Shown here: positions 1 to 53,983 of the stretch, piece by piece
How the letters are laid out: every line of letters starts with the position of its first letter
How positions within the stretch are numbered: the first letter of the stretch is position 1
Source of the DNA: Squalus acanthias
Taxonomy: Eukaryota
Reading direction: 5' to 3'
Length of the DNA: 64,000 nucleotides
Assembly (NCBI GenBank): GCA_030390025.1
Contig: CM059432.1
Span: forward strand, 27,158,001 to 27,222,000
The notes under the pieces: generated by a model
The model's database searches: none
Told to the model about the DNA's origin: nothing
The model's input: the letters and a program-made list of their open reading frames with translations, nothing else
Program-made: the position numbers and the translations under genes

Positions 1-423
1 TCTCCTGGGAGGTCTCTTCCATCCATGGGAAGGGAAGAGAACCTCCCTGCATGCTGTGACTCCCTCCATGACTCCCTCCATAAGCATATGGAGGGAGTAA
101 TGGGAGAGCCTGGGTGCAGTTATGAACTTTTGTGCAGTGCTCGTCAGTGTTTGCAGCCCCTCAATGCTGTAGAACACTGACACCAGAACTGTCAAGATCA
201 ATTTGGACATGGCTTCTTTAAGGAAATTGACTGATGACGTGTCATCAAATGACGTCGTCAGATCCACTTCCTTTTAATTGGCTGGGTACCTCGCAGGGCG
301 GGCTTAACAAGCCCAATCAATGAAAAATCACTTGGAGAGTGCTGGCTGCAGCAGGCAGCGGGCTGGGACCGTGATACCGACCCTGGCCGCCCCGGACCTG
401 CCTCGGTTGGTGAAATCGTGGCC
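1..423 (-). mobile_element. PIF/Harbinger-derived remnant (5' part of Myb/SANT-like gene plus element end)
   Basis: 1-120 resembles 10870-10980 of the complete Harbinger; ends in aaatcgtggcc, similar to that element's TIR. Confidence 0.5.
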
Positions 424-439
424 TTGGTTTGGAAGGTTG

Positions 440-893
440 AGGTTGATCTAATCAAGGTGTTTAAAATGATAAAGTGATTCGATAGGGTAAATACAGAGAA
501 ATTATTTCCTCTGGTGGGCGAACAAGGGGGCATAACCTTAAAATTAGAACTGGTCCATTTAGGAGTGAAATCAGGAAGCACTTTTTCATGCAAAGAATAG
601 TGGAACTCTGGAACTCTGGAACTTGCTCCTCTAAAAGGCTGTAAATGCTGAGTCAATTGAAATTTTAAAGACTGAGATTGGTAGATTTTTGAAATAAAAA
701 CAGAAAATGCTGGAAATACTCAGCAGGTCAGACAGCATCTGTGGAGAGAGAAACAGAGTTAACGTTTCAGGTCGATGGCCTTTCGTCAGAACTGATAGAT
801 TTTTGCTAGCCACGGGTATTAAGCGATACAGAGCAAAGGTGGCTAAATGGGGTGGAGGTACAGATCAGCCATGATCTAACTGAATGGCAGAAC
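440..893 (+). mobile_element. Old CR1 3' fragment (resumes at ~4750-4790)
   Basis: Decayed RT C-terminus and 3'UTR motif cagatcagccatgatct..gaatggcagaac; continuation aacaggatcaaggg after the inserted CR1. Confidence 0.75.
692..795 (-). mobile_element. PLE 3' terminal fragment with hammerhead motif
   Basis: Matches PLE tail at 38563-38662; flanked by duplicated tagatttttg. Confidence 0.75.
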
Positions 894-1328
894 TACACTT
901 GTAGTGTCCCCCACCCTTCCACCTCCTCTAACCTAAAGGGGGTGAGTGTATATCAGGAGGCCCGGTGAGTATCTAAACTCACTTTCGCGGGCTTTTGTTT
1001 GCAGAGGCTGCTGTCGGGAGCAGAGAGAGCCGAGGCCCGAGGTTTACCAATCTCAGACCAGCGGCAGCGTTCCAGAGCCACGTTACGATTCAAAACGTGA
1101 CGTGGGCAGGAGGGAGCGGCTGATTGGGTGAGTACGGCAGGTTAGTATTTATACTACTTTATAGTTTGATAGTTAAGGTTCATAGTTTATAAAGTTTCGA
1201 AGATCTTAATTTTGTGATCATAATTTCTAGTGCTAGTAACCAAGGGCCCTTGAGTAATTCATTTAATTGAGTGAAATTGGTGGTATTGATTTGATTTATT
1301 TAAAGTTCAATTAATTAAAGGGTAAGTC

Positions 1329-2276
1329 ATGGCAGGACAGCCCAGCCCCATGTTGTGCTCCTCCTGCTCTATGTGGGAAATCAGGGACCCTTCCGGTGTC
1401 CCTGACGACAATGTGTGCGGGAAGTGTATCCAGCTGCAGCTACTGACAGCCCGCATTGCAGCGCTGGAGCTGCGGCTGGATGCATATTGGAGCATTCGCA
1501 ATGCTGAGAACCTCGTGGATAGCACGTTTAGTGAGTTGGTCACACCGCAGGTGAAGGGTGTACAGGCAGGAAGGGAATGGGTGACCACCAGGCAGAGTAG
1601 GAGGTGCAGGCAGGTAGTGCAGGGGTCCCCTGTGGCCATCCCCCTCTCAAACAGATATACCGCTTTGGATACTGTTGGGGGGGATGACTTAGGAGAAGGC
1701 AGCAGCAGCCAACTTCCTGGCACCATGGGCGGCTCTGCTGCACAGGCTGGGAGGAAAAAGAGTGGAAGAGCTATAGTGATAGGGGACTCAATTGTAAGGG
1801 GAATAGATAGGCGTTTCTGCGGCCGCAACCGAGACTCCAGGATGGTGTGTTGCCTCCCTGGTGCAAGGGTCAAGGACGTCTCGGAGCGGCTACAGAACAT
1901 TTTGGAGGGGGAGGGCGAACAGCCAGCTGTCGTGGTGCACATAGGCACCAACGATATTGGTAAAAAAGGGGATGAGGTCCTAAAAGCAGAATATAGGGAG
2001 TTAGGAGGTAAATTAAAAAATAGGACCTCAAAGGTAGTAATCTCAGGATTGCTACCAGTGCCACGTGCTAGTCAGAGTAGAAATAGGAGGATATTTCAAA
2101 TGAATACGTGGCTAGAGGAATGGTGCAAGGGGGAGGGATTCAAATTCCTGGGACATTGGAACCGGTTCTGGTGGAGGTGGGACCAGTACAAACCGGACGG
2201 TCTGCACCTGGGCAGGGCCGGGACCGCTGTCCTAGGGGGAGTGTTTGCTAGTGCTGTTGGAGAGGATTTAAACTAA
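1329..2276 (+). CDS. CR1 ORF1: Cys-rich N-terminus, coiled coil, SGNH esterase-like domain
   Basis: CxxC..CxxC, leucine heptads, IVIGDSIVR, VHIGTND, DGLHL motifs; uninterrupted 315 aa. Confidence 0.9.
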   Translation: MAGQPSPMLCSSCSMWEIRDPSGVPDDNVCGKCIQLQLLTARIAALELRLDAYWSIRNAENLVDSTFSELVTPQVKGVQAGREWVTTRQSRRCRQVVQGSPVAIPLSNRYTALDTVGGDDLGEGSSSQLPGTMGGSAAQAGRKKSGRAIVIGDSIVRGIDRRFCGRNRDSRMVCCLPGARVKDVSERLQNILEGEGEQPAVVVHIGTNDIGKKGDEVLKAEYRELGGKLKNRTSKVVISGLLPVPRASQSRNRRIFQMNTWLEEWCKGEGFKFLGHWNRFWWRWDQYKPDGLHLGRAGTAVLGGVFASAVGEDLN

Positions 2277-4546
2277 TGTGGCAGGGGGTTGGGAACCTGA
2301 GCAGGGAGACAGAGGAAAGCATGTCAGGAAGGGACAGAAGGTATGGAGTAAAAGGTAAAGTGTTAAATAAGGAAAAAGCAGGAAGTAAGTGTCGCAAAAC
2401 ACATTTGAAAGTTCTTTATCTGAGCTTGAATAAAGGAGACTATGATGGCATGAGAGCAGAATTGATTAAAGTGGGCTGGGAAAATAGATTAAAGGGTAAG
2501 ACGGTACATGAGCAGTGGTGTTCATTCAAGGAGTTATTTTACAACTTTCAAAATAAATATATTCCACTGAGGAAAAAAGGGTGTAAAAGAAATGACAGCC
2601 ATCCATGGCTAAGTAAAGAAATTAAAGAAAGTATCCAACTAAAAACAAGGACATATAAGGTAGCCAAAGTTAGTGGGAGGATAGAAGATTGGGAAATCTT
2701 CAAAAGACAACAAAAAGTAACTAAAGGATTGATTAAGAAAGGGAAAATAGACTATGAAAATAAATTAGCAAAAAATATAAAAACAGATAGCAAGAGTTTC
2801 TATAGTTATATAAAAAGAAAAAGGGTGCTTAAGGCAAACGTAGGTCCCTTAGAGGATGAGACCGGGAAATTAATGGTGGGAAACATGGAGATGGCAAAAA
2901 TGCTGAACAAATATTTTGTTTCAGTCTTTACGGTAGAGGACACTAAGAATATCCCAACACTGGACAAACAGGGGGCTCTAGTGGGGGAGGAGCTAAATAC
3001 GATTAAAATCACTAAGGAATTGGTACTCAGTAAAATAATGGGACTCAAGGTGGATAAATCCCCTGGACCTGATGGCTTACATCCTAGGGTCTTGAGGGAA
3101 GTGGCAGTAGGAATTGTGGATGCTTTGGTAATAATTTTCCAAAACTCCCTGAACTCAGCAAAGGTCCCGGCAGATTGGAAAACTGCTAATGTAACACCCT
3201 TATTTAAAAAGGGTTGTAGGCAGAAGGCTGGAAATTATAGACCAGTTAGCCTAACATCTGTGGTGGGTAAAATTTTGGAGTCTATTATTAAGGAGACAGT
3301 AACGGAACATTTAGATAAACAAAATTTAATAGGACAAAGTCAGCATGGCTTTATGAAGGGGACGTCATGTCTGACAAATTTGCTCGAGTTCTTTGAGGAC
3401 ATAACGTACAGGGTGGATAAAGGGGAACCAGTGGATGTAGTGTATTTAGACTTCCAGAAGGCATTCGACAAGGTGCCACATAAAAGATTATTACTCAAGA
3501 TAAAAAATCACTGGATTGGAGGTAATATTCTGGCATGGGTGGAGGATTGGTTATCTAACAGGAAGCAGAGAGTTGGGATAAATGGTTCATTCTCGGACTG
3601 GCAACCAGTAGCCAGTGGTGTTCCACAGGGGTTGGTGCTGGGTCCCCAACTCTTCACAATCTATATTAACGATTTGGAGGAGGGGACCGAGTGTAACATA
3701 TCAAAGTTTGCAGATGATACAAAGATGGGAGGGAAAGTAGAGAGTGAGGAGGACATAAAAAACCTACAAGGGGATATAGACAGGCTGGGTGAGTGGGCAG
3801 AGATTTGGCAGATGCAGTACAATATTGGAAAATGTGAGGTTATGCACTTTGGCAGGAAAAATCAGAGAGCAAGTTATTATCTTAATGGCGAGAAACTGGA
3901 AAGTACTGCAGTACAAAGGGATCTGGGGGTCTTGGTGCAAGAAAATCAAAAAGTTAGTATGCAGGTGCAGCAGGTGATCAAGAAAGCCAATGGAATGTTG
4001 GCTTTTATTGCTAGGGGGATAGAATATAAAAACAGGGAGGTATTGCTGCAGTTGTATAGGGTATTGGTGAGACCGCACCTGGAGTACTGCATACAGTTTT
4101 GGTGTCCATACTTAAGAAAAGACATACTTGCTCTCAAGGCAGTACAAAGAAGGTTCACTCGGTTAATTCCGGGGATGAGGGGCTGGACATACGAGGAGAG
4201 GTTGAGTAGATTGGGACTCTACTCATTGGAGTTCAGAAGAATGAGAGGCGATCTTATTGAAACATATAAGATTGTGAAGGGGCTTGATCGGGTGGACGCG
4301 GTGAGGATGTTCCCAATGATGGGTGAAACTCGAACTAGGGGGCATAATCTTAGAATAAGGGGCTCCTCTTTCAAAACTGAGATGAGGAGAAACTTTTTCA
4401 CTCAGAGGGTAGTGGGTCTGTGGAATTTGCTACCCCAGGAAGCTGTGGAAGCTACTTCATTAAATAAATTTAAAACAGAAATAGACCGTTTCCTAGAAGT
4501 AAAGGGAATCAGGGGTTACGGGGAGTGGGCTGGAAATTGGACATGA
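2276..4546 (+). CDS. CR1 ORF2 reverse transcriptase lacking the APE domain
   Basis: KSPGPDG, NYRPVSL, QHGF, YLDFQKAFD, GVPQG, FADD; 756 aa open; KVLYL joined directly to SLNKGDY. Confidence 0.9.
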   Translation: MWQGVGNLSRETEESMSGRDRRYGVKGKVLNKEKAGSKCRKTHLKVLYLSLNKGDYDGMRAELIKVGWENRLKGKTVHEQWCSFKELFYNFQNKYIPLRKKGCKRNDSHPWLSKEIKESIQLKTRTYKVAKVSGRIEDWEIFKRQQKVTKGLIKKGKIDYENKLAKNIKTDSKSFYSYIKRKRVLKANVGPLEDETGKLMVGNMEMAKMLNKYFVSVFTVEDTKNIPTLDKQGALVGEELNTIKITKELVLSKIMGLKVDKSPGPDGLHPRVLREVAVGIVDALVIIFQNSLNSAKVPADWKTANVTPLFKKGCRQKAGNYRPVSLTSVVGKILESIIKETVTEHLDKQNLIGQSQHGFMKGTSCLTNLLEFFEDITYRVDKGEPVDVVYLDFQKAFDKVPHKRLLLKIKNHWIGGNILAWVEDWLSNRKQRVGINGSFSDWQPVASGVPQGLVLGPQLFTIYINDLEEGTECNISKFADDTKMGGKVESEEDIKNLQGDIDRLGEWAEIWQMQYNIGKCEVMHFGRKNQRASYYLNGEKLESTAVQRDLGVLVQENQKVSMQVQQVIKKANGMLAFIARGIEYKNREVLLQLYRVLVRPHLEYCIQFWCPYLRKDILALKAVQRRFTRLIPGMRGWTYEERLSRLGLYSLEFRRMRGDLIETYKIVKGLDRVDAVRMFPMMGETRTRGHNLRIRGSSFKTEMRRNFFTQRVVGLWNLLPQEAVEATSLNKFKTEIDRFLEVKGIRGYGEWAGNWT

Positions 4547-48439: not shown

Positions 48440-48922
48440 TTATCACCCCCTCCTCTTAAAACCCACCCTTGACCCTTCTATCCTTGCAAACTTCCCCCCA
48501 TCTTCACCCTCCCTTCACTCCCCAAAGTCCTTAAATGTGTTGTTGTCTCCCAAATCCATGCCTATCTTCCCACAACTCCATATTTAAGCCCCTCCAATCA
48601 GGTATTCACCCCTGCCATAGTACTGAAACGGCCCTTATCAAAGTTACAAATGACATCCTATGTAACTGTGACCGTGGTAAACTATCCCTCCTCACCCTTC
48701 TCGACCTGTCTGCAGCCTTTGACAAGGTTGACCACACCATCCGCCAATGTCTCTCCTCCGTCGTCTAGCTGGGTGGGGCTGACCACGCCTCATTCCATTC
48801 CTATCTATCCAGCTGTAGCCAGAGAATCACCTGCAATGGCTTCTCTTCCTGCTCCCGCACCGGTACCTCTGGAGTCCCTCAAGGATCTATCCTTGGCCCC
48901 CTTCTATTTCTGATCTACATAC
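48440..48922 (+). mobile_element. L2 RT fragment (resumes at ~53857-53983)
   Basis: [28 protein letters not shown]. Confidence 0.8.
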
Positions 48923-49531
48923 TGTAAGCTAAAGCCTAGAACAGTGGTCCCCAACCTGTGGTCCGCGAGGGTACTGCAGGTGGTCCGTGAAAAAATGGTC
49001 CAAACCCCTAAAATAAACGTGTCTGTTGTCTACAGATGTTGAATGACCCGCCGTGTGGTTCCAGTGTTTTTATTGCTGTTTAAATCTGGGTTTTGGGGAT
49101 AAGCTGATGGAAGTGAAAACCTGCCGGTGATGGAGGGCGGGCTGGTTTTCTGGAAAGCGCAAATCAACTGGGCCGAAAAATCAGCTCCAGACAAATTCAC
49201 CAAAATATTTCCCACCGCACTACCGCACAACGGCAAGTACTGCTCCACTCTATCATATAAACCCAACCAGCGCCCCCTCAATTCAACAATCTTCACCAGT
49301 GTCCCCACTAATATACAACCTCAGGTGTGTGGGACTTTGACAGTGGGTTTTATACAACAGCAGCCGCCAGTCCTCTTGTGTCACACTAAGTAAAGCTAGA
49401 CGTCATAAATATAAGATCCTCAATAATAAATCCAGTTGGGAAATCAGGAAAAACTTGTTTATGCAAAGAGTGGTTGGAATGTGGAACGCGATACCACAGG
49501 TACCAGATATCAGTGAGCTGAGCAGACAGTT

Positions 49532-49606
49532 GACACCGTGGCTTAGCTGGTCAAAGCGCCTGTCGAGTATACAGGTAGAACTTGGGTTCGATTCCCAGCG
49601 GGGCAT
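49532..49606 (+). pseudogene. tRNA-Thr(AGT) pseudogene
   Basis: gacaccgtggcttagctggtcaaagcgcctgtcgAGTatacagg..ggttcgattcccagcggggca then T-run; U33 and acceptor stem mutated. Confidence 0.85.
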
Positions 49607-50707
49607 TTTTTAAAGAACAAAATATTCTCTTAAGATCCCACAGAGGTTGGTTGCTTCTCGTTTGAAAGTGCTGCAATCCTTTGGGATGGGAACGGAAAAA
49701 AGGCTCATCCCAAATACATATTAAAGTCTGACTGTCATTCGGCCAACATGCGAACATTTCCTCCAGTCTGTGACAGAAAGTTAACGGTTTATTAATGGCG
49801 ATTAAAGCAATTATTCATCGTGATACTGCCTTTAATTATATGTTCGTGTAATTAATTTAATAAACTGCACAACTGTTTTATAAAAATCAGACCGGAAATC
49901 AACCCCGTGCTCTGGTTGCACCGAATTCCAACCCCTGGCCCACCGAGGAAAGCTCCACCCAGCAGCTGTGAGAGCTGTCAATATACTGGGTGCATTCCTG
50001 CTAGATACAAATGTATTCCTGACTTGTGATCGATGTAAATGTTTATTATCTCTGCAAGTTACAAGTGTCTGTAGATATATCTGAATTAATTATTCATTTA
50101 TTGGGACGCATCTGTTTAATTCCAGATCCAAACAACTCGCAGTTTAAAAAAAAAATGGTTCCTAATGTCGCCTCGGATTCTTCTGCCAATCACCTTCAAT
50201 CTGTGTCCTCTGGTCACCGACTCTTTAACCACTGGAAAAATGTTTCTCCTCATTTACGATATCAAACCCATTCATGAATTTAAACACCTCTGTCAAAACC
50301 TCTGCTCTAAGGAGAACAACCCCAGCTTCTCCAGGCCCCCACATTCTGAAATCCCTCATCCCTGGTACCATTCCAGTGAATCACTTCTGTTCATTTCTTC
50401 CTTCTAATAAATAACTACAGTGGAACGCTTCTAAGAAAAAGCACGAACAGAATAAAAAAAGAGAGAGAAATAAATACTGAGCAAAATGGATGTGAATGTT
50501 TAAGAACAGAAGAAATAGGAGCAGGAGTAGGCCATGCGGCCCTTCGAGCCTGCTCCGCCATTTAATGAGATCATGGCTGATCTTATAAGGTGAAATAGCA
50601 GAAGGTCTGGGTTTTATGATCGGTCAGTGAGTGGAATTCATCTTTCAATCGGGGTTTGGCCGTTCGATTTACTGATAAAGACAGACAGAGAGAATTGTTG
50701 CAGACAG

Positions 50708-50780
50708 GGCCGGCTAGCTTAGTCGATAGAACATGCGGCTTTTAATCTCAAGCTCGTGGGTTCGAGCCCCAGGTTGGGTG
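50708..50780 (+). pseudogene. tRNA-Lys pseudogene (CTT-type body, anticodon reads TTT)
   Basis: ggccggctagcttagtcgatagaacatgcggctTTTaatctcaagctcgtgggttcgagccccaggttgggtg; several stem mismatches. Confidence 0.85.
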
Positions 50781-51270
50781 GTTATTTTTACTGCTGATTT
50801 TACAGGCGATCCCCAGCTCTGAATTCCGAGGGAGAGAGTCCAAGGAGTGTTTGATGTAAATGAGATACAACAACAATATCAGTAAATCTCTCCATGATTC
50901 TGGACTCTTATCTCTCTCTATTTGAACTTCATATCATTTCACCTACAGCTCGGCGTCAGTGCGGCTCTGTGGGACATCGGGCCAGTCTCACCCTTCACAA
51001 CGCATCAGTGCCGGTTAAACAACGGGGAATTTTACACACATGTTGTGCTCAGCAACTTCTTATAAAAACTTCAGTATACTTCACTGCGTGTCCAACCCTG
51101 TGAGGTCTCCCCTGGAGTGACAGCTTTAGATGTTTATAAACACGTCAGCAGAACATTAACATAACCCGAGTTCCGAGATCTGGTCGGGTCCCATTCCCCT
51201 GAAGTGATTAATGAGCAGGAGGGATCAGAGTTTCTTTAAAAGAATGACACGAAAATCACTTTGATGTGAG

Positions 51271-51298
51271 GCCGAAATAGCTCAGATGGGATTCGGCG
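51271..51298 (+). pseudogene. Internally deleted tRNA-Phe remnant
   Basis: gccgaaatagctcagatggga (5' end) joined to ttcggc (3' end), then T-run. Confidence 0.6.
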
Positions 51299-51805
51299 GC
51301 TTTTAGATATTTTGTGTCTCTTTCTTTGGGTCCTTTTCTCGAACTTACCAGTTTAAGCTGAAGTCTTTTATCTGCCACTGAAGGGTTGGGTTTGAATAGA
51401 GAGAGACATCAAGGATGGAAACTATTTCTATTGGCTGTATTTAGCTTTTATTTCTCTATTTCCTTCTGCCCCTTTCTCTGGTTTTTGTCTCTCTCGGGGC
51501 CGGGTGAACATTTGATTTGATACATTTGTCCTAAACTGATGCCTTTTACACATCTCGGGGCGGTCAGACACGCTCTGTCTGTCTGTTGCTGCCTGTGACC
51601 ATTAACGGAAACAGGCCGCCAGTTAAACGTTTCTCAGCAAACCGAAGAAAGACAAATAAACAGAGAGATGTGTTGCTCCGCCCAGTGCAAAGCTGAAATG
51701 GATGTTATTGAAAATAAGTTCCCCCTGACAGCTTGTGTAGATTTTTTGTAAAGTCTGGATTTTCAATGTCAGGAGAAACCGAAAAAGTAAGAAATAAACT
51801 GCTGA

Positions 51806-51879
51806 TGACCCGTACAGGGATTAAACCCGTGCCCTTAGCGATATCAGCACCACGCTCTAAACAAGTGTGATAAAAGCTG
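51806..51879 (-). pseudogene. tRNA-Ile pseudogene (AAT-type body, anticodon reads GAT)
   Basis: Reverse complement ttagagcgtggtgctGATatcgctaagggcacgggtttaatccctgtacgggtca. Confidence 0.75.
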
Positions 51880-51908
51880 TCCGGATTGTTCGAGCCCCAC
51901 GCTGGGCG
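51880..51908 (+). pseudogene. tRNA-Lys 3' remnant
   Basis: gttcgagccccacgctgggcg matches the tRNA-Lys(CTT) T-arm and acceptor strand. Confidence 0.6.
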
Positions 51909-52490
51909 GTTCGTGTTTTACTTCTCACACTGGGTCACAGAGTTATTGTACAGACAATGAGCACACCACATCCCTTAAACATGATTCCGATATAAAATAA
52001 TCACTGTTCGATAAAAACCGAGTATGTAAATCGAAAGTAACAGGAAAAGAGCACTTAATTGTGAAAAGAATGATTGCACCAACAGTGAAGGGGAATCTGC
52101 CGGCCTCCGCCATTCTAATCCTGTGACTGGGAGTTTGGTTCGGGCAGAGGTTTGACTGTGACGACACGAATACCAGCCTCCCCCCCCGCCCCCACCATCC
52201 ATGTTAAACCTGAAAAGTGTCTGGCAAAAATTCGGAACAGGCAGGGAGGAAGTAACCATTCGGAGAGGTTTGTGTTTCTGAATCCCTAACTCTTCTGGCT
52301 CTTTTTGACATGTCCCCATTCAATGTACAGACCCTCTGCTCAGTCTGCCCCTCGAGACCTGTCACCTCACATTTCTCTCCAGCTAATTTCAAAACATGTT
52401 TTACACACCCCTCCAGGATTGTCCTGGAGTCCCCAATACTTGTCAATTGTAGCACTTTCTGAAATACTACCCGTGTCATGTGTTAGTCAA

Positions 52491-52733
52491 GAGAGGTCGC
52501 ACAACACCAGGTTATAGTCCAACAGTTTTATTTGAAATCACAAGCTTTCGGAGCTATCGATTGCTCCTTCCTCAGGTGAAGTAAATTAGATACAGAATCG
52601 CCAAAAGCCTGAGGAAGGAGCAATCGATAGCTCCGAAAGCTTGTGATTTCAAATAAAACTGTTGGACTATAACCTGGTGTTGTGCGACCTCTCAATTTTG
52701 TCCACCCCAGTCCAACACCGGCATCTCCGCATC
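52491..52733. mobile_element. PLE tail insertion (second family) forming an 86-bp inverted repeat with hammerhead motifs
   Basis: Arms 52491-52576 and 52608-52693; CTGAGGA-a-ggagc..gctcc-GAAAG; ttagtcaagagag duplicated at 52483 and 52734. Confidence 0.8.
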
Positions 52734-53983
52734 TTAGTCAAGAGAGACAGAGGGGAATTAGGCAGACCAAGCGTCGCTGAGCCTTTGCTGTAGTGAAACA
52801 GGGGTTCGTTTCATGAAACAGTGCTACAGCTTTCGGAATAGAGGGAGCTTATAGAGACCTGATGGGTTCCACCGAAACAAAAAGGTTTGAGGTTTTGGCA
52901 GGCAGGACAGATAGAATATGGGGAGTGTTTAAACTAGATGTGGAGGTTTTTGCTGTAGTTGTTCTATGGAGTTCCTTCAAGGAGGTGATTCTGAATACAA
53001 AGCAAAGGTACTGAGCATCATTAGAGTCCAGCCTGGTCCAACGGAACTAACAAACAATGCATCCAGAAGAGAAAAAGGGATTTAAGGCCATGACGGTAAA
53101 TGGCGCAGAATTCAGGCGGCTTCAAAACCAGAAGGCAAGACAAGAGTGTAAAAACTGCAACAGAATGGCGAAGAACAACTTCACATTGAACATGGCAAGT
53201 GAAGAGAAGGCTAAAAATAGTGCCAGAGGTAAGTTGTGATATTATTCACAAAATGTTTTAAACGGCTTGCTTACGTTGTGGTCCGCAAAAGCTTCTGATG
53301 ACGATGTAGTGGTCCGCATAAAGGAAAAGGTTGGGAACCGCTGGCCTAGAACACCTGTAAATGCTTATTTAGATATTTTATGTATTGGAAAGGCTAAGTA
53401 TCCCAGCATGCTTTTCCAACAGGCCAAGAAGTGCTTGATGAGATGTAGCAGCTGTCAATCTCCCACATTAGGCAGACAAACAGGCTGTAAATAACAAGAT
53501 GAGGGGAGAGTCCTTGATTAGATCTAGAAAGCTATCAATCTCCCAAATAGCTAGACTGAAAGGAATATGAACAACAAGATAAGGCTAGGTATGAAAAAGT
53601 ACAAGAAGTTCCACATGTGGAGGCAGAGAAGAAAGATTCTTGAAGTCAACATTCTTCCTAGCAGAACCGGGTAATATTGGGTCTGTTGTATTAACTTTAA
53701 CTTGTTGAAGTTAATACAACAGACCCAATATTACCCGGTTCTTGAGTGTAAGGATTGTCCTTTGCTAGTGGGTCAGCTTGTCCTGCCATGTGTTATTTTA
53801 AATCTATTAATAAAATATACTTACTACATAACATATTGGTTTGGTCTCCTTCGGAATCTCTACCTCACCACCACCTCTCTCGACCCCTCCACTGCCTTTG
53901 ATTTGTCACACTGCTTGTCCGACATCCAGTACTTCATGAGCAGAAATTTCGTCCAGCTAAATATTGGGAAGAGCAAAGCCATT

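Follow-up and report, generated by a model that had tools for sequence, protein, structure and literature searches.

A hAT transposon carrying a block of a tRNA gene cluster in the genome of Squalus acanthias

Introduction

That cut-and-paste transposons take up host DNA is well established for plants; the animal cases surveyed are, as the text of that survey presents them, mostly single-copy and a few hundred bp long (PMC8277862). The same text reports 370 Pack-TIRs, elements that hold host DNA between terminal inverted repeats (TIRs), in 100 animal genomes, with 208 assigned to hAT, 4 multicopy and a median capture of 224 bp (Tan et al. 2021, PMC8277862). It also describes Pack-hAT-N8_XT of Xenopus tropicalis, which is present in 3 copies with a cargo of 291 bp; the main text of the survey contains the word tRNA 0 times (PMC8277862). 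Here we describe a 4,402-bp element at positions 48942-53343 of a 64,000-nucleotide stretch of Squalus acanthias DNA (assembly GCA_030390025.1, contig CM059432.1, positions 27,158,001 to 27,222,000), the whole of which we refer to as the window. We conclude, with a probability of about 0.9, that it is a non-autonomous Buster-type hAT that formed once by capturing a block of a tRNA gene cluster and then spread.

Buster elements, as described for TcBuster, AnBuster and relatives, are 2.5-3.0 kb long, encode proteins of 597-677 amino acids and end in TIRs of 14-16 bp (PMC12637253). The target site duplications (TSDs) of Buster elements are given the consensus nnnTAnnn (PMC3517528).

An initial annotation, made from the letters of the window, had proposed a non-autonomous hAT transposon that mobilised a block of a tRNA cluster by capture at the DNA level. 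It suggested searching the genome for further copies of the ends and the cargo, for a donor cluster, and for an autonomous hAT with the same TIRs. In the literature searched we found no description of a DNA transposon bearing a tRNA gene cluster. Vertebrate tRNA genes can form tandem repeats, for example the 3.18-kb tRNA gene (tDNA) repeat of Xenopus laevis.

Results

We searched the 3.7-Gb assembly, in which the window lies on contig C8; C-numbers denote contigs and L-numbers the loci that were fetched. The element has 16-bp TIRs, checked by eye and by pattern, in which the left end and the reverse complement of the right end are identical at 14 of 16 positions (longest exact run, 8). Each end carries two copies of the subterminal motif GTGGTCCG, and no stop-to-stop open reading frame (ORF) in the element is longer than 114 amino acids. 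Thus the TIRs, the perfect 8-bp TSD, the subterminal repeats at both ends and the lack of a transposase, all named in the initial annotation, are borne out. Transposon DNA is confined to the outer 52 bp and 93 bp, and cargo makes up nearly the whole element. The 52-bp left backbone aligns with the left end of two MITEs (miniature transposable elements with inverted repeats), L071 and L072, and of an autonomous element, L073, and has no homology to the native tRNA cluster L069. Likewise, the 93-bp right backbone can be aligned with the MITEs and the autonomous element at their right ends, and homology to L069 ends at ...TATTCACA.

The remainder of the element corresponds to L069 (C26:41001300-41007700), which was found through a Thr-downstream pattern match at C26:41.005 Mb. 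This locus aligns to element positions 53-4309 at 85.6-88.6% identity, leaving unmatched the 52 bp at the left end and the 93 bp at the right, and contains tRNA-Thr(AGT) (69.5 bits), tRNA-Lys(CTT) (65.1 bits) and a full-length tRNA-Phe(GAA) (53.6 bits). At its boundaries we found neither a TIR nor the GTGGTCCG motif, and homology to the element breaks sharply at both. A paralogue, L070, has in common with L069 418 bp of flank past the left breakpoint, inside a 1,271-bp alignment at 97.5% identity, as expected for native paralogues and not for transposon copies. As in a Pack-TIR, host DNA therefore lies between TIRs while a TIR-less parental copy is found elsewhere in the genome (L069, with the flank also in L070). 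The cargo consists of tRNA genes and spacers and not of a protein-coding gene fragment, which a Pack-MULE in the strict sense would carry. Because the cargo follows the native locus collinearly in its spacers and in genes of both orientations, capture took place at the DNA level and not by retroposition, as the initial annotation had argued; the donor cluster that it suggested looking for has a TIR-less, donor-type counterpart in L069.

The Lys-Phe part of L069 is 97% identical to the unit of a 1,798-bp tandem array (L067, C26:44310974-44341556), in which 18 consecutive Lys-downstream pattern matches are spaced at 1,798-1,799 bp. In each unit Lys(CTT) scores 65.1 bits and Phe(GAA), which is non-canonical, 53.6 bits, and the units are arranged head to tail at 99% identity. 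The unit aligns with element positions 1266-2768 at 87-90%. The window element reads as a copy, moved by transposition, of a neighbouring unit in the C26 region that is more complex. The array itself lies within ~0.1 Mb of the end of C26, and more arrays occur on C271 (L068), including a 2,173-bp variant unit that is 99% identical in the common parts. We considered this variant unit as a source of the Thr and Ile pieces and rejected it, since it holds Lys and Phe only.

Cargo-free relatives account for the two ends. Many matches to the left-terminal 44-mer read CAGCGG, not CAGTGG, and lie at places without cargo. Two of them, the MITEs L071 (178 bp, TSD AATTAGAT) and the internally shorter L072 (144 bp, TSD CTCTAACC), have in common with the composite the left ~52 bp and, on the right, ~93 bp for L071 and the last 37 bp for L072. 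MITE homology starts where L069 homology stops, with a template overlap of AATG at the left breakpoint (48994-48997) and of ~1 nt (A) at the right. The composite consists of MITE ends and native-cluster DNA, and cargo-free parental forms are present as L071, L072 and the autonomous L073. At 4,402 bp the window element itself is far above the size of a MITE (<~800 bp); the 144-178-bp parent forms, noncoding and small, are within it.

The autonomous partner was reached through three 44-mer matches at 3,567-3,568-bp spacing on C15. L073 (C15:42968100-42972100) contains, at its positions 189-2573, a 2,385-bp element with the TSD CTATATAC and the TIRs CAGCGGTTCCCAACCT and AGGTCGGGAACCGCTG. Its terminus is the same 44 nt as that of the composite except for position 4, and its subterminal DNA matches the MITE at both sides. 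L073 has a single ORF of 627 amino acids, for which 1,199 homologous proteins were found at E<=1e-10 (best 67% identity, E 8.7e-277). Named homologues are mostly 'zinc finger BED domain-containing protein 5-like' and carry PF14291, PF27073, PF27046 and, in a minority, PF05699. Additionally, the ESM Atlas groups the protein with ZBED5-like, FAM200 and GTF2IRD2-like clusters (score 0.98), while a sequence search of the PDB with the transposase gave no meaningful match. A protein search of the genome returned 948 first-look candidates, and the 70 that were scored gave 79 matches; 22 of these cover residues 1-627, and 14 of the 22 are stop-free, at 92-100% identity. At least 8 protein matches adjoin left-terminus 44-mer matches at the spacing seen in L073 (~255 bp).

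The size of L073, its single ORF, its 16-bp TIRs and its nnnTAnnn TSDs agree with the description of the Buster family in the two sources cited for it (PMC12637253, PMC3517528). Short TIRs of ~14-16 bp are common to the window element and to an element with a hAT transposase, and the protein of the partner is assigned, by its sequence relatives, to the ZBED5-like, Buster-type hAT transposases. The initial annotation had called the element a Charlie-like hAT; hAT stands by TSD, TIRs and partner, and the subgroup is refined to ZBED5/Buster-type with nnnTAnnn duplications. We take the label 'Charlie-like' to be compatible with a Buster-type assignment. The autonomous hAT with the same TIRs that it had suggested looking for is L073. 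The C15 locus holds three autonomous copies in the 3,567-3,568-bp tandem repeat, with identical 627-aa frames. Elsewhere than in this repeat, at least 11 further full-length, stop-free frames occur at 92-96% identity, and the autonomous family is well preserved.

The composite is present at many places in the genome. Queries with the terminal 200 bp gave 699 (left) and 645 (right) first-look candidates, and in each set 40 of the 40 that were scored match at 94-100%. An 80-mer across the left junction gave 240 candidates, and all 40 scored match at 96% or more (39 over 80 bases, one over 78). With a 3,251-bp cargo query (window 49200-52450), matches over the full length were obtained at 21 other places, at 89-95% identity. 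Three diagnostic patterns were run at up to 3 mismatches, each against a reversed-pattern control (0 matches in every case). The Lys-downstream 36-mer has 153 genome matches, native arrays included, the Thr-downstream 41-mer also 153, a few native loci included, and the left-terminal 44-mer 215, MITEs and autonomous copies included.

Six other full copies (L061-L066; 4,174-4,339 bp) and the window copy all have TIRs and their own 8-bp TSDs (7 of 7), four of them perfect and three with one mismatch. Flanking 8-mers were compared at 29 loci for the left end and 29 for the right, and positions 4-5 are TA in 57 of the 58; left and right TSDs are identical in 6 of 6 locus pairs, and the flanks are distinct at 25 of the 29 left and 27 of the 29 right ends. 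TSDs of 8 bp with the consensus nnnTAnnn are those of hAT elements of the Buster group. The composite has reached at least 150 sites with 8-bp nnnTAnnn duplications. The genome search with ends and cargo that the initial annotation had proposed thus returned many loci with the same TIRs and distinct TSDs, and its description of a non-autonomous transposon that mobilised a tRNA-cluster block holds: the copies carry the cargo between the same TIRs, each with its own TSD.

The seven full copies have a mean pairwise identity of 94.8% and identities of 96.6-97.3% to the majority sequence derived from them; the window copy is an ordinary, decayed member of the long form, ~3% from the family majority. 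Of 29 non-self left-end loci, nine hold the long form contiguously to the end of the locus and three hold it with other indels. Fifteen hold a short form of ~2.2 kb, in which element positions 1-705 are joined to 2671-4402, and the remaining two hold other forms, including one of ~0.8 kb. The commoner short form is without Lys and Phe, and since it retains the array-derived positions 2671-2768 it is a deletion derivative and not an ancestor. All copies examined share their junctions, the Phe deletion described below (7 of 7) and T at TIR position 4 (CAGTGG; the parents have C), which shows that the capture took place once. On C29 (1.86-4.71 Mb) and C3319 we also noted seven composite copies with a private TIR variant, CAGTGGTTCACAACC, which probably arose by segmental duplication and not by separate insertions.

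The initial annotation had listed tRNA-Thr, Lys, a collapsed Phe, Ile and a second Lys remnant inside the element, and all five were recovered. Thr was called by ARAGORN and Rfam and was the sole tRNA found by Rfam in the window copy; the other four are too decayed there for calling and were confirmed by aligning them with better-preserved copies and with the native genes. Among such copies, the highest-scoring calls by ARAGORN and Rfam reach 47.5 bits for Thr(AGT) and 47.9 bits for Lys(CTT). The alignments comprise 43 rows for Thr (several copies entered twice, e.g. L061=L005 and L063=L002), 9 for Lys, 7 for Phe and 45 for the Ile piece and Lys remnant. The minus-strand piece, which we take to resemble a canonical Ile tRNA, scores 21.7 bits at best (copy L063) and is uncalled in native L069 too. 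Relative to the native genes, copies have 4-14 differences for Thr and 2-11 for Lys; the Lys family majority is 2 positions off, the window Lys 11, and the TTT anticodon of the latter is a private change from CTT. Because the native locus and the tandem array hold the full 74-nt gene, the collapsed Phe reflects an internal deletion in the element, of 43 bp by the BLAST join or 46 bp by the alignment gap.

As genes, the window pieces fall well short of their native counterparts: Thr reaches 32.6 bits against 69.5, Lys goes unreported at E<=1 against 65.1, and Phe is deleted. Three regions of Thr (anticodon loop, T-loop and acceptor end) depart from the native sequence in the majority and in 41 of the 43 aligned rows, from which it follows that Thr was probably already impaired when the burst started. 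Judged by these sequences, the tRNAs carried by the element are pseudogenes, and the dispersed material would therefore be tRNA pseudogenes, perhaps with Pol III (RNA polymerase III) promoter boxes, and not working genes. The initial annotation had allowed for a dispersal of Pol III genes or of tRNA pseudogenes; the second half of this stands, the first does not.

It is nevertheless conceivable that copies were retained for working tRNA genes or Pol III boxes, whether as a supply of tRNA or as TFIIIC boundaries. The majority Lys has intact A- and B-box regions and differs from its native counterpart by 2 nt, scores of 47-48 bits persist in some copies, and tRNA genes are described as able to serve as barrier elements (PMC11830863). 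We consider such retention improbable. Scores in the copies run from 23.6 to 47.9 bits against 53.6-69.5 for the native genes, the changes in the three Thr regions are nearly universal, and the per-copy divergence of Thr (4-14) and Lys (2-11) is comparable to that of the rest of the element. Furthermore, the most frequent form of the element has dispensed with Lys and Phe altogether.

Still less credible is the reverse direction, in which the C26 loci and the array would descend from an element copy that had lost its ends and whose tRNAs were repaired by gene conversion. Direction is inferred here and not observed, native and majority sequences differ by 7%, and the array Phe is itself non-canonical (53.6 bits), the 5' half of the element Phe looking more canonical. 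Against this, Phe is full-length in the native loci and carries a deletion common to 7 of 7 element copies. Two native paralogues have a common flank past the breakpoint, and the native boundaries are free of TIR and GTGGTCCG. Additionally, the MITE and the autonomous element hold different, mutually homologous DNA at the place of the cargo.

A one-off event, in which a tRNA fragment landed in a resident MITE at this site only and other elements with the same TIRs are short and lack tRNAs, is refuted: MITEs of 144-178 bp that share the ends and lack tRNAs are indeed present, but the cargo lies between these ends at many loci with different TSDs and shows no separate insertion boundaries, since it is bordered by the points where MITE homology starts. 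The initial annotation had named this outcome as the one that would tell against it, and the finding of the whole cargo query at the other places speaks otherwise. Finally, there is next to no chance that the tRNA-like pieces are heads of tRNA-derived short interspersed nuclear elements (SINEs) inserted in an ordinary hAT, even though the cargo holds an unrelated common repeat, since the acceptor ends of Thr and Lys run directly into T-run terminators, the cargo is collinear with the native cluster over ~4 kb in order, orientation and spacers, the Lys majority differs from the native gene by 2 nt, and no SINE bodies, tails or own TSDs were seen around the pieces in a unit that is bounded by TIRs and an 8-bp TSD.

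The features of the window element are collected in Table 1. The 251-bp nested insertion has 86-nt perfectly complementary arms (52491-52576 and 52608-52693) around a 31-nt loop, with TTAGTCAAGAGAG at both sides (52483-52746). It is missing from 6 of 6 other full copies, and in 4 of 4 other sequencing runs there are contigs that pass straight from 52482 to 52734, with 13 letters common; the insertion is young. The initial annotation had rightly had the element carry the tRNA block, but had not separated this private insertion (52496-52746) from the cargo. Relatives of the insertion occur in loci L014, L046 and L059, and it has a sub-threshold Rfam match to mir-1597 (48 bits, gathering score 93). 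A second near-perfect hairpin lies to the right of the element at 53644-53761, with sub-threshold matches to MIR6450 (43.8 bits) and mir-2012 (41.6 bits), and is probably another palindromic mini-repeat. We set aside the miRNA-family Rfam matches in the window as hairpins of palindromic repeats, all being below their gathering scores.

Table 1. Features of the hAT element in the window (positions are those of the 64,000-nucleotide stretch).
Feature	Position	Strand	Remarks
Left TSD copy GCCTAGAA	48934-48941	.	Identical to 53344-53351; nnnTAnnn, like 57/58 family flanks
Left transposon backbone, 52 bp	48942-48993	+	TIR 48942-48957, CAGTGGTCCCCAACCT; GTGGTCCG at 48958-48965 and 48980-48987
Captured cargo	48994-53250	+	Native C26 tRNA cluster, collinear; includes the private nested insertion in the window copy
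tRNA-Thr(AGT) pseudogene, then T6 run	49533-49605	+	ARAGORN; Rfam 32.6 bits; 10 positions off the native gene (69.5 bits)
tRNA-Lys pseudogene, then T5 run	50708-50780	+	Anticodon TTT (ancestral CTT); no Rfam report at E<=1 in the window
Collapsed tRNA-Phe(GAA)	51271-51299 (about)	+	5' 21 nt fused to 3' acceptor remnant; same form in 7/7 copies
Degenerate tRNA-Ile-like pseudogene	51803-51884 (about)	-	D-loop-region insertion; degenerate in 45/45 aligned rows
Second tRNA-Lys(CTT), 3' remnant	51885-51911 (about)	+	Direct repeat of the Lys 3' end; matches the array Lys 3' end; in 45/45 rows
Private nested palindromic insertion, 251 bp including one copy of the 13-bp duplication TTAGTCAAGAGAG	52496-52746	.	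Repeat search and copy alignment
Right transposon backbone, 93 bp	53251-53343	+	GTGGTCCG at 53278-53285 and 53309-53316; TIR 53328-53343, AGGTTGGGAACCGCTG
Right TSD copy GCCTAGAA	53344-53351	.	Identical to the left copy

Two further segments of the cargo stand out. A stretch of ~26 bp immediately upstream of Thr (49506-49531) is common to the window copy and the C17 copy (L061/L005) and wholly unlike the other 40 rows; both copies also have C at TIR position 8. The variant points to a short tract having been replaced or converted in one sub-lineage. An 84-bp segment (50501-50586) is a dispersed repeat that is very common: the 64-kb window has 11 further copies of it, at 87-94%. It is part of a far more abundant element, as loose ends in contigs from sequencing runs show.

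The left flank of the element reads, by eye, as a decayed reverse transcriptase of a long interspersed nuclear element (LINE), in a frame with 10 stop codons. A paralogous decayed LINE at 23138-23756 matches 48442-48917 and 53858-53943, with reverse-transcriptase motifs and 79% identity. The host LINE is interrupted by 24 bp and 514 bp of other DNA (~540 bp), in which the hAT element sits. Of the initial annotation's setting, a long terminal repeat remnant inside an L2, what we recover is an interrupted, decayed LINE at the site with the element within the interrupting DNA. In sequencing runs of other organisms (20 rows, organisms A-I), 0.14-0.36 of the sampled words are present; the runs listed include none of RNA, which speaks neither for nor against expression. 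Contigs from four runs span 28-30 of 30 bins, and the pieces listed do not bear on the junction of MITE end and cargo.

Discussion

The composite structure suggests the following course of events. A short MITE of ~150-180 bp lost its ~37-bp middle and gained ~4.06 kb copied from a chromosomal tRNA cluster, which comprised, spacers included, Thr-AGT, Lys-CTT, Phe-GAA, an Ile pseudogene and a Lys remnant. The capture may have proceeded by template switching at microhomologies during the repair of a double-strand break or gap in the MITE; microhomology-guided template switching is the route put forward for animal Pack-TIRs in the survey's text (PMC8277862). The resulting composite kept ends of 52 bp and 93 bp, each with a TIR and two GTGGTCCG motifs, and the common ends suggest that the 2.4-kb autonomous relatives supplied the transposase that moved it in trans. 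The 2.2-kb and 0.8-kb derivatives arose by internal deletion. The window copy is a long-form insertion that later decayed to ~3% from the majority and received the private palindromic insertion.

Several points weigh against this account. The genome counts are lower bounds or first-look figures and not a census, and spread is read from sequence, transposition itself being unobserved. Repeated flanks stem from segmental duplications on C6 and C23, and clustered copies occur also on C4 and C29, so that copy number exceeds the number of transposition events. Identity between the family majority and L069 is only 92.9%, so that L069 either is a paralogue of donor type or has changed in the meantime, and is not the proven donor. 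For the right breakpoint, support comes from a single native locus, as two further native paralogues, L074 and L075, diverge or are interrupted before it. In local Pfam searches the 627-aa ORF gave sub-threshold matches (PF05699, E 0.082, 13.2 bits at a cut-off of 21.4; PF14291, E 0.11), although the PF05699 shortfall reflects a weak family model for this clade and is not a contradiction. For another Buster element, AnBuster, ends of 41-64 bp are reported to have given very little activity (PMC12637253). As far as that report goes, this sits uneasily with the 52-bp left end found here.

We also considered that the Pol III cargo may be active, such that A/B boxes, TFIIIC binding and nucleosome-free chromatin helped excision, reinsertion or retention. 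This is unlikely. If true, it would explain how a 4-kb composite with minimal ends has done about as well as its parent family, and the insertions, at least 150 in number, would have seeded TFIIIC/Pol III sites as boundary elements or new tRNA loci.

A donor-type cluster, a parent MITE, an autonomous partner and the amplified product are all found in one genome, and the breakpoints are resolved to the base. With these four parts at hand, the capture mechanism and the minimal cis-requirements of Buster elements become directly testable. Our findings also show that tRNA pseudogenes, and perhaps Pol III regulatory sites as well, are scattered in a vertebrate genome by a route distinct from both retroposition and tandem duplication, which matters for the annotation of tRNA genes in such genomes. 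The element should be of solid interest to specialists in transposons and in tRNA genes. The capture of host DNA by TIR transposons was already known; what sets this case apart is the size of the cargo, the copy number, a Pol III cluster as cargo, and the fact that all partners can be identified. It is an unusually large and successful capture of host DNA in an animal.

Among described systems, Pack-hAT-N8_XT is similar, as its description goes, in being a non-autonomous hAT with host DNA between its TIRs, a TIR-free parental copy, microhomology at the breakpoints and distinct 8-bp TSDs. Unlike the Pack-TIRs reported in the text of the survey, the family described here has a cargo of ~4.06 kb, at least 150 copies and a Pol III gene cluster inside. 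The autonomous partner resembles Buster elements as they are described, at 2,385 bp with one 627-aa ORF, 16-bp TIRs and 8-bp nnnTAnnn TSDs, whereas the window element is without transposase and has ends cut to 52 and 93 bp. The 144-178-bp parent MITEs are, like Mar, the Buster-type MITEs of Drosophila, short deletion derivatives with CAG TIRs and nnnTAnnn TSDs (PMC3517528). The window element differs from Mar in carrying captured host DNA, of which the Mar description gives none (PMC3517528). With the plant Pack-MULE and Pack-TYPE elements, as presented in the sources cited, it has in common that a non-autonomous TIR element captures and amplifies host sequence (PMC8903248, PMC5861414). Those plant elements belong, by the same accounts, to MULE, CACTA and hAT lineages and carry fragments of protein-coding genes, whereas the present element lives in a vertebrate and has whole Pol III genes with their spacers as its cargo. 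Lastly, the C26 donor region resembles the tandem tDNA of other vertebrates, having a 1,798-bp Lys(CTT)/Phe(GAA) unit repeated head to tail at 99% identity. The C26 array is not mobile, whereas the window element has transposed.

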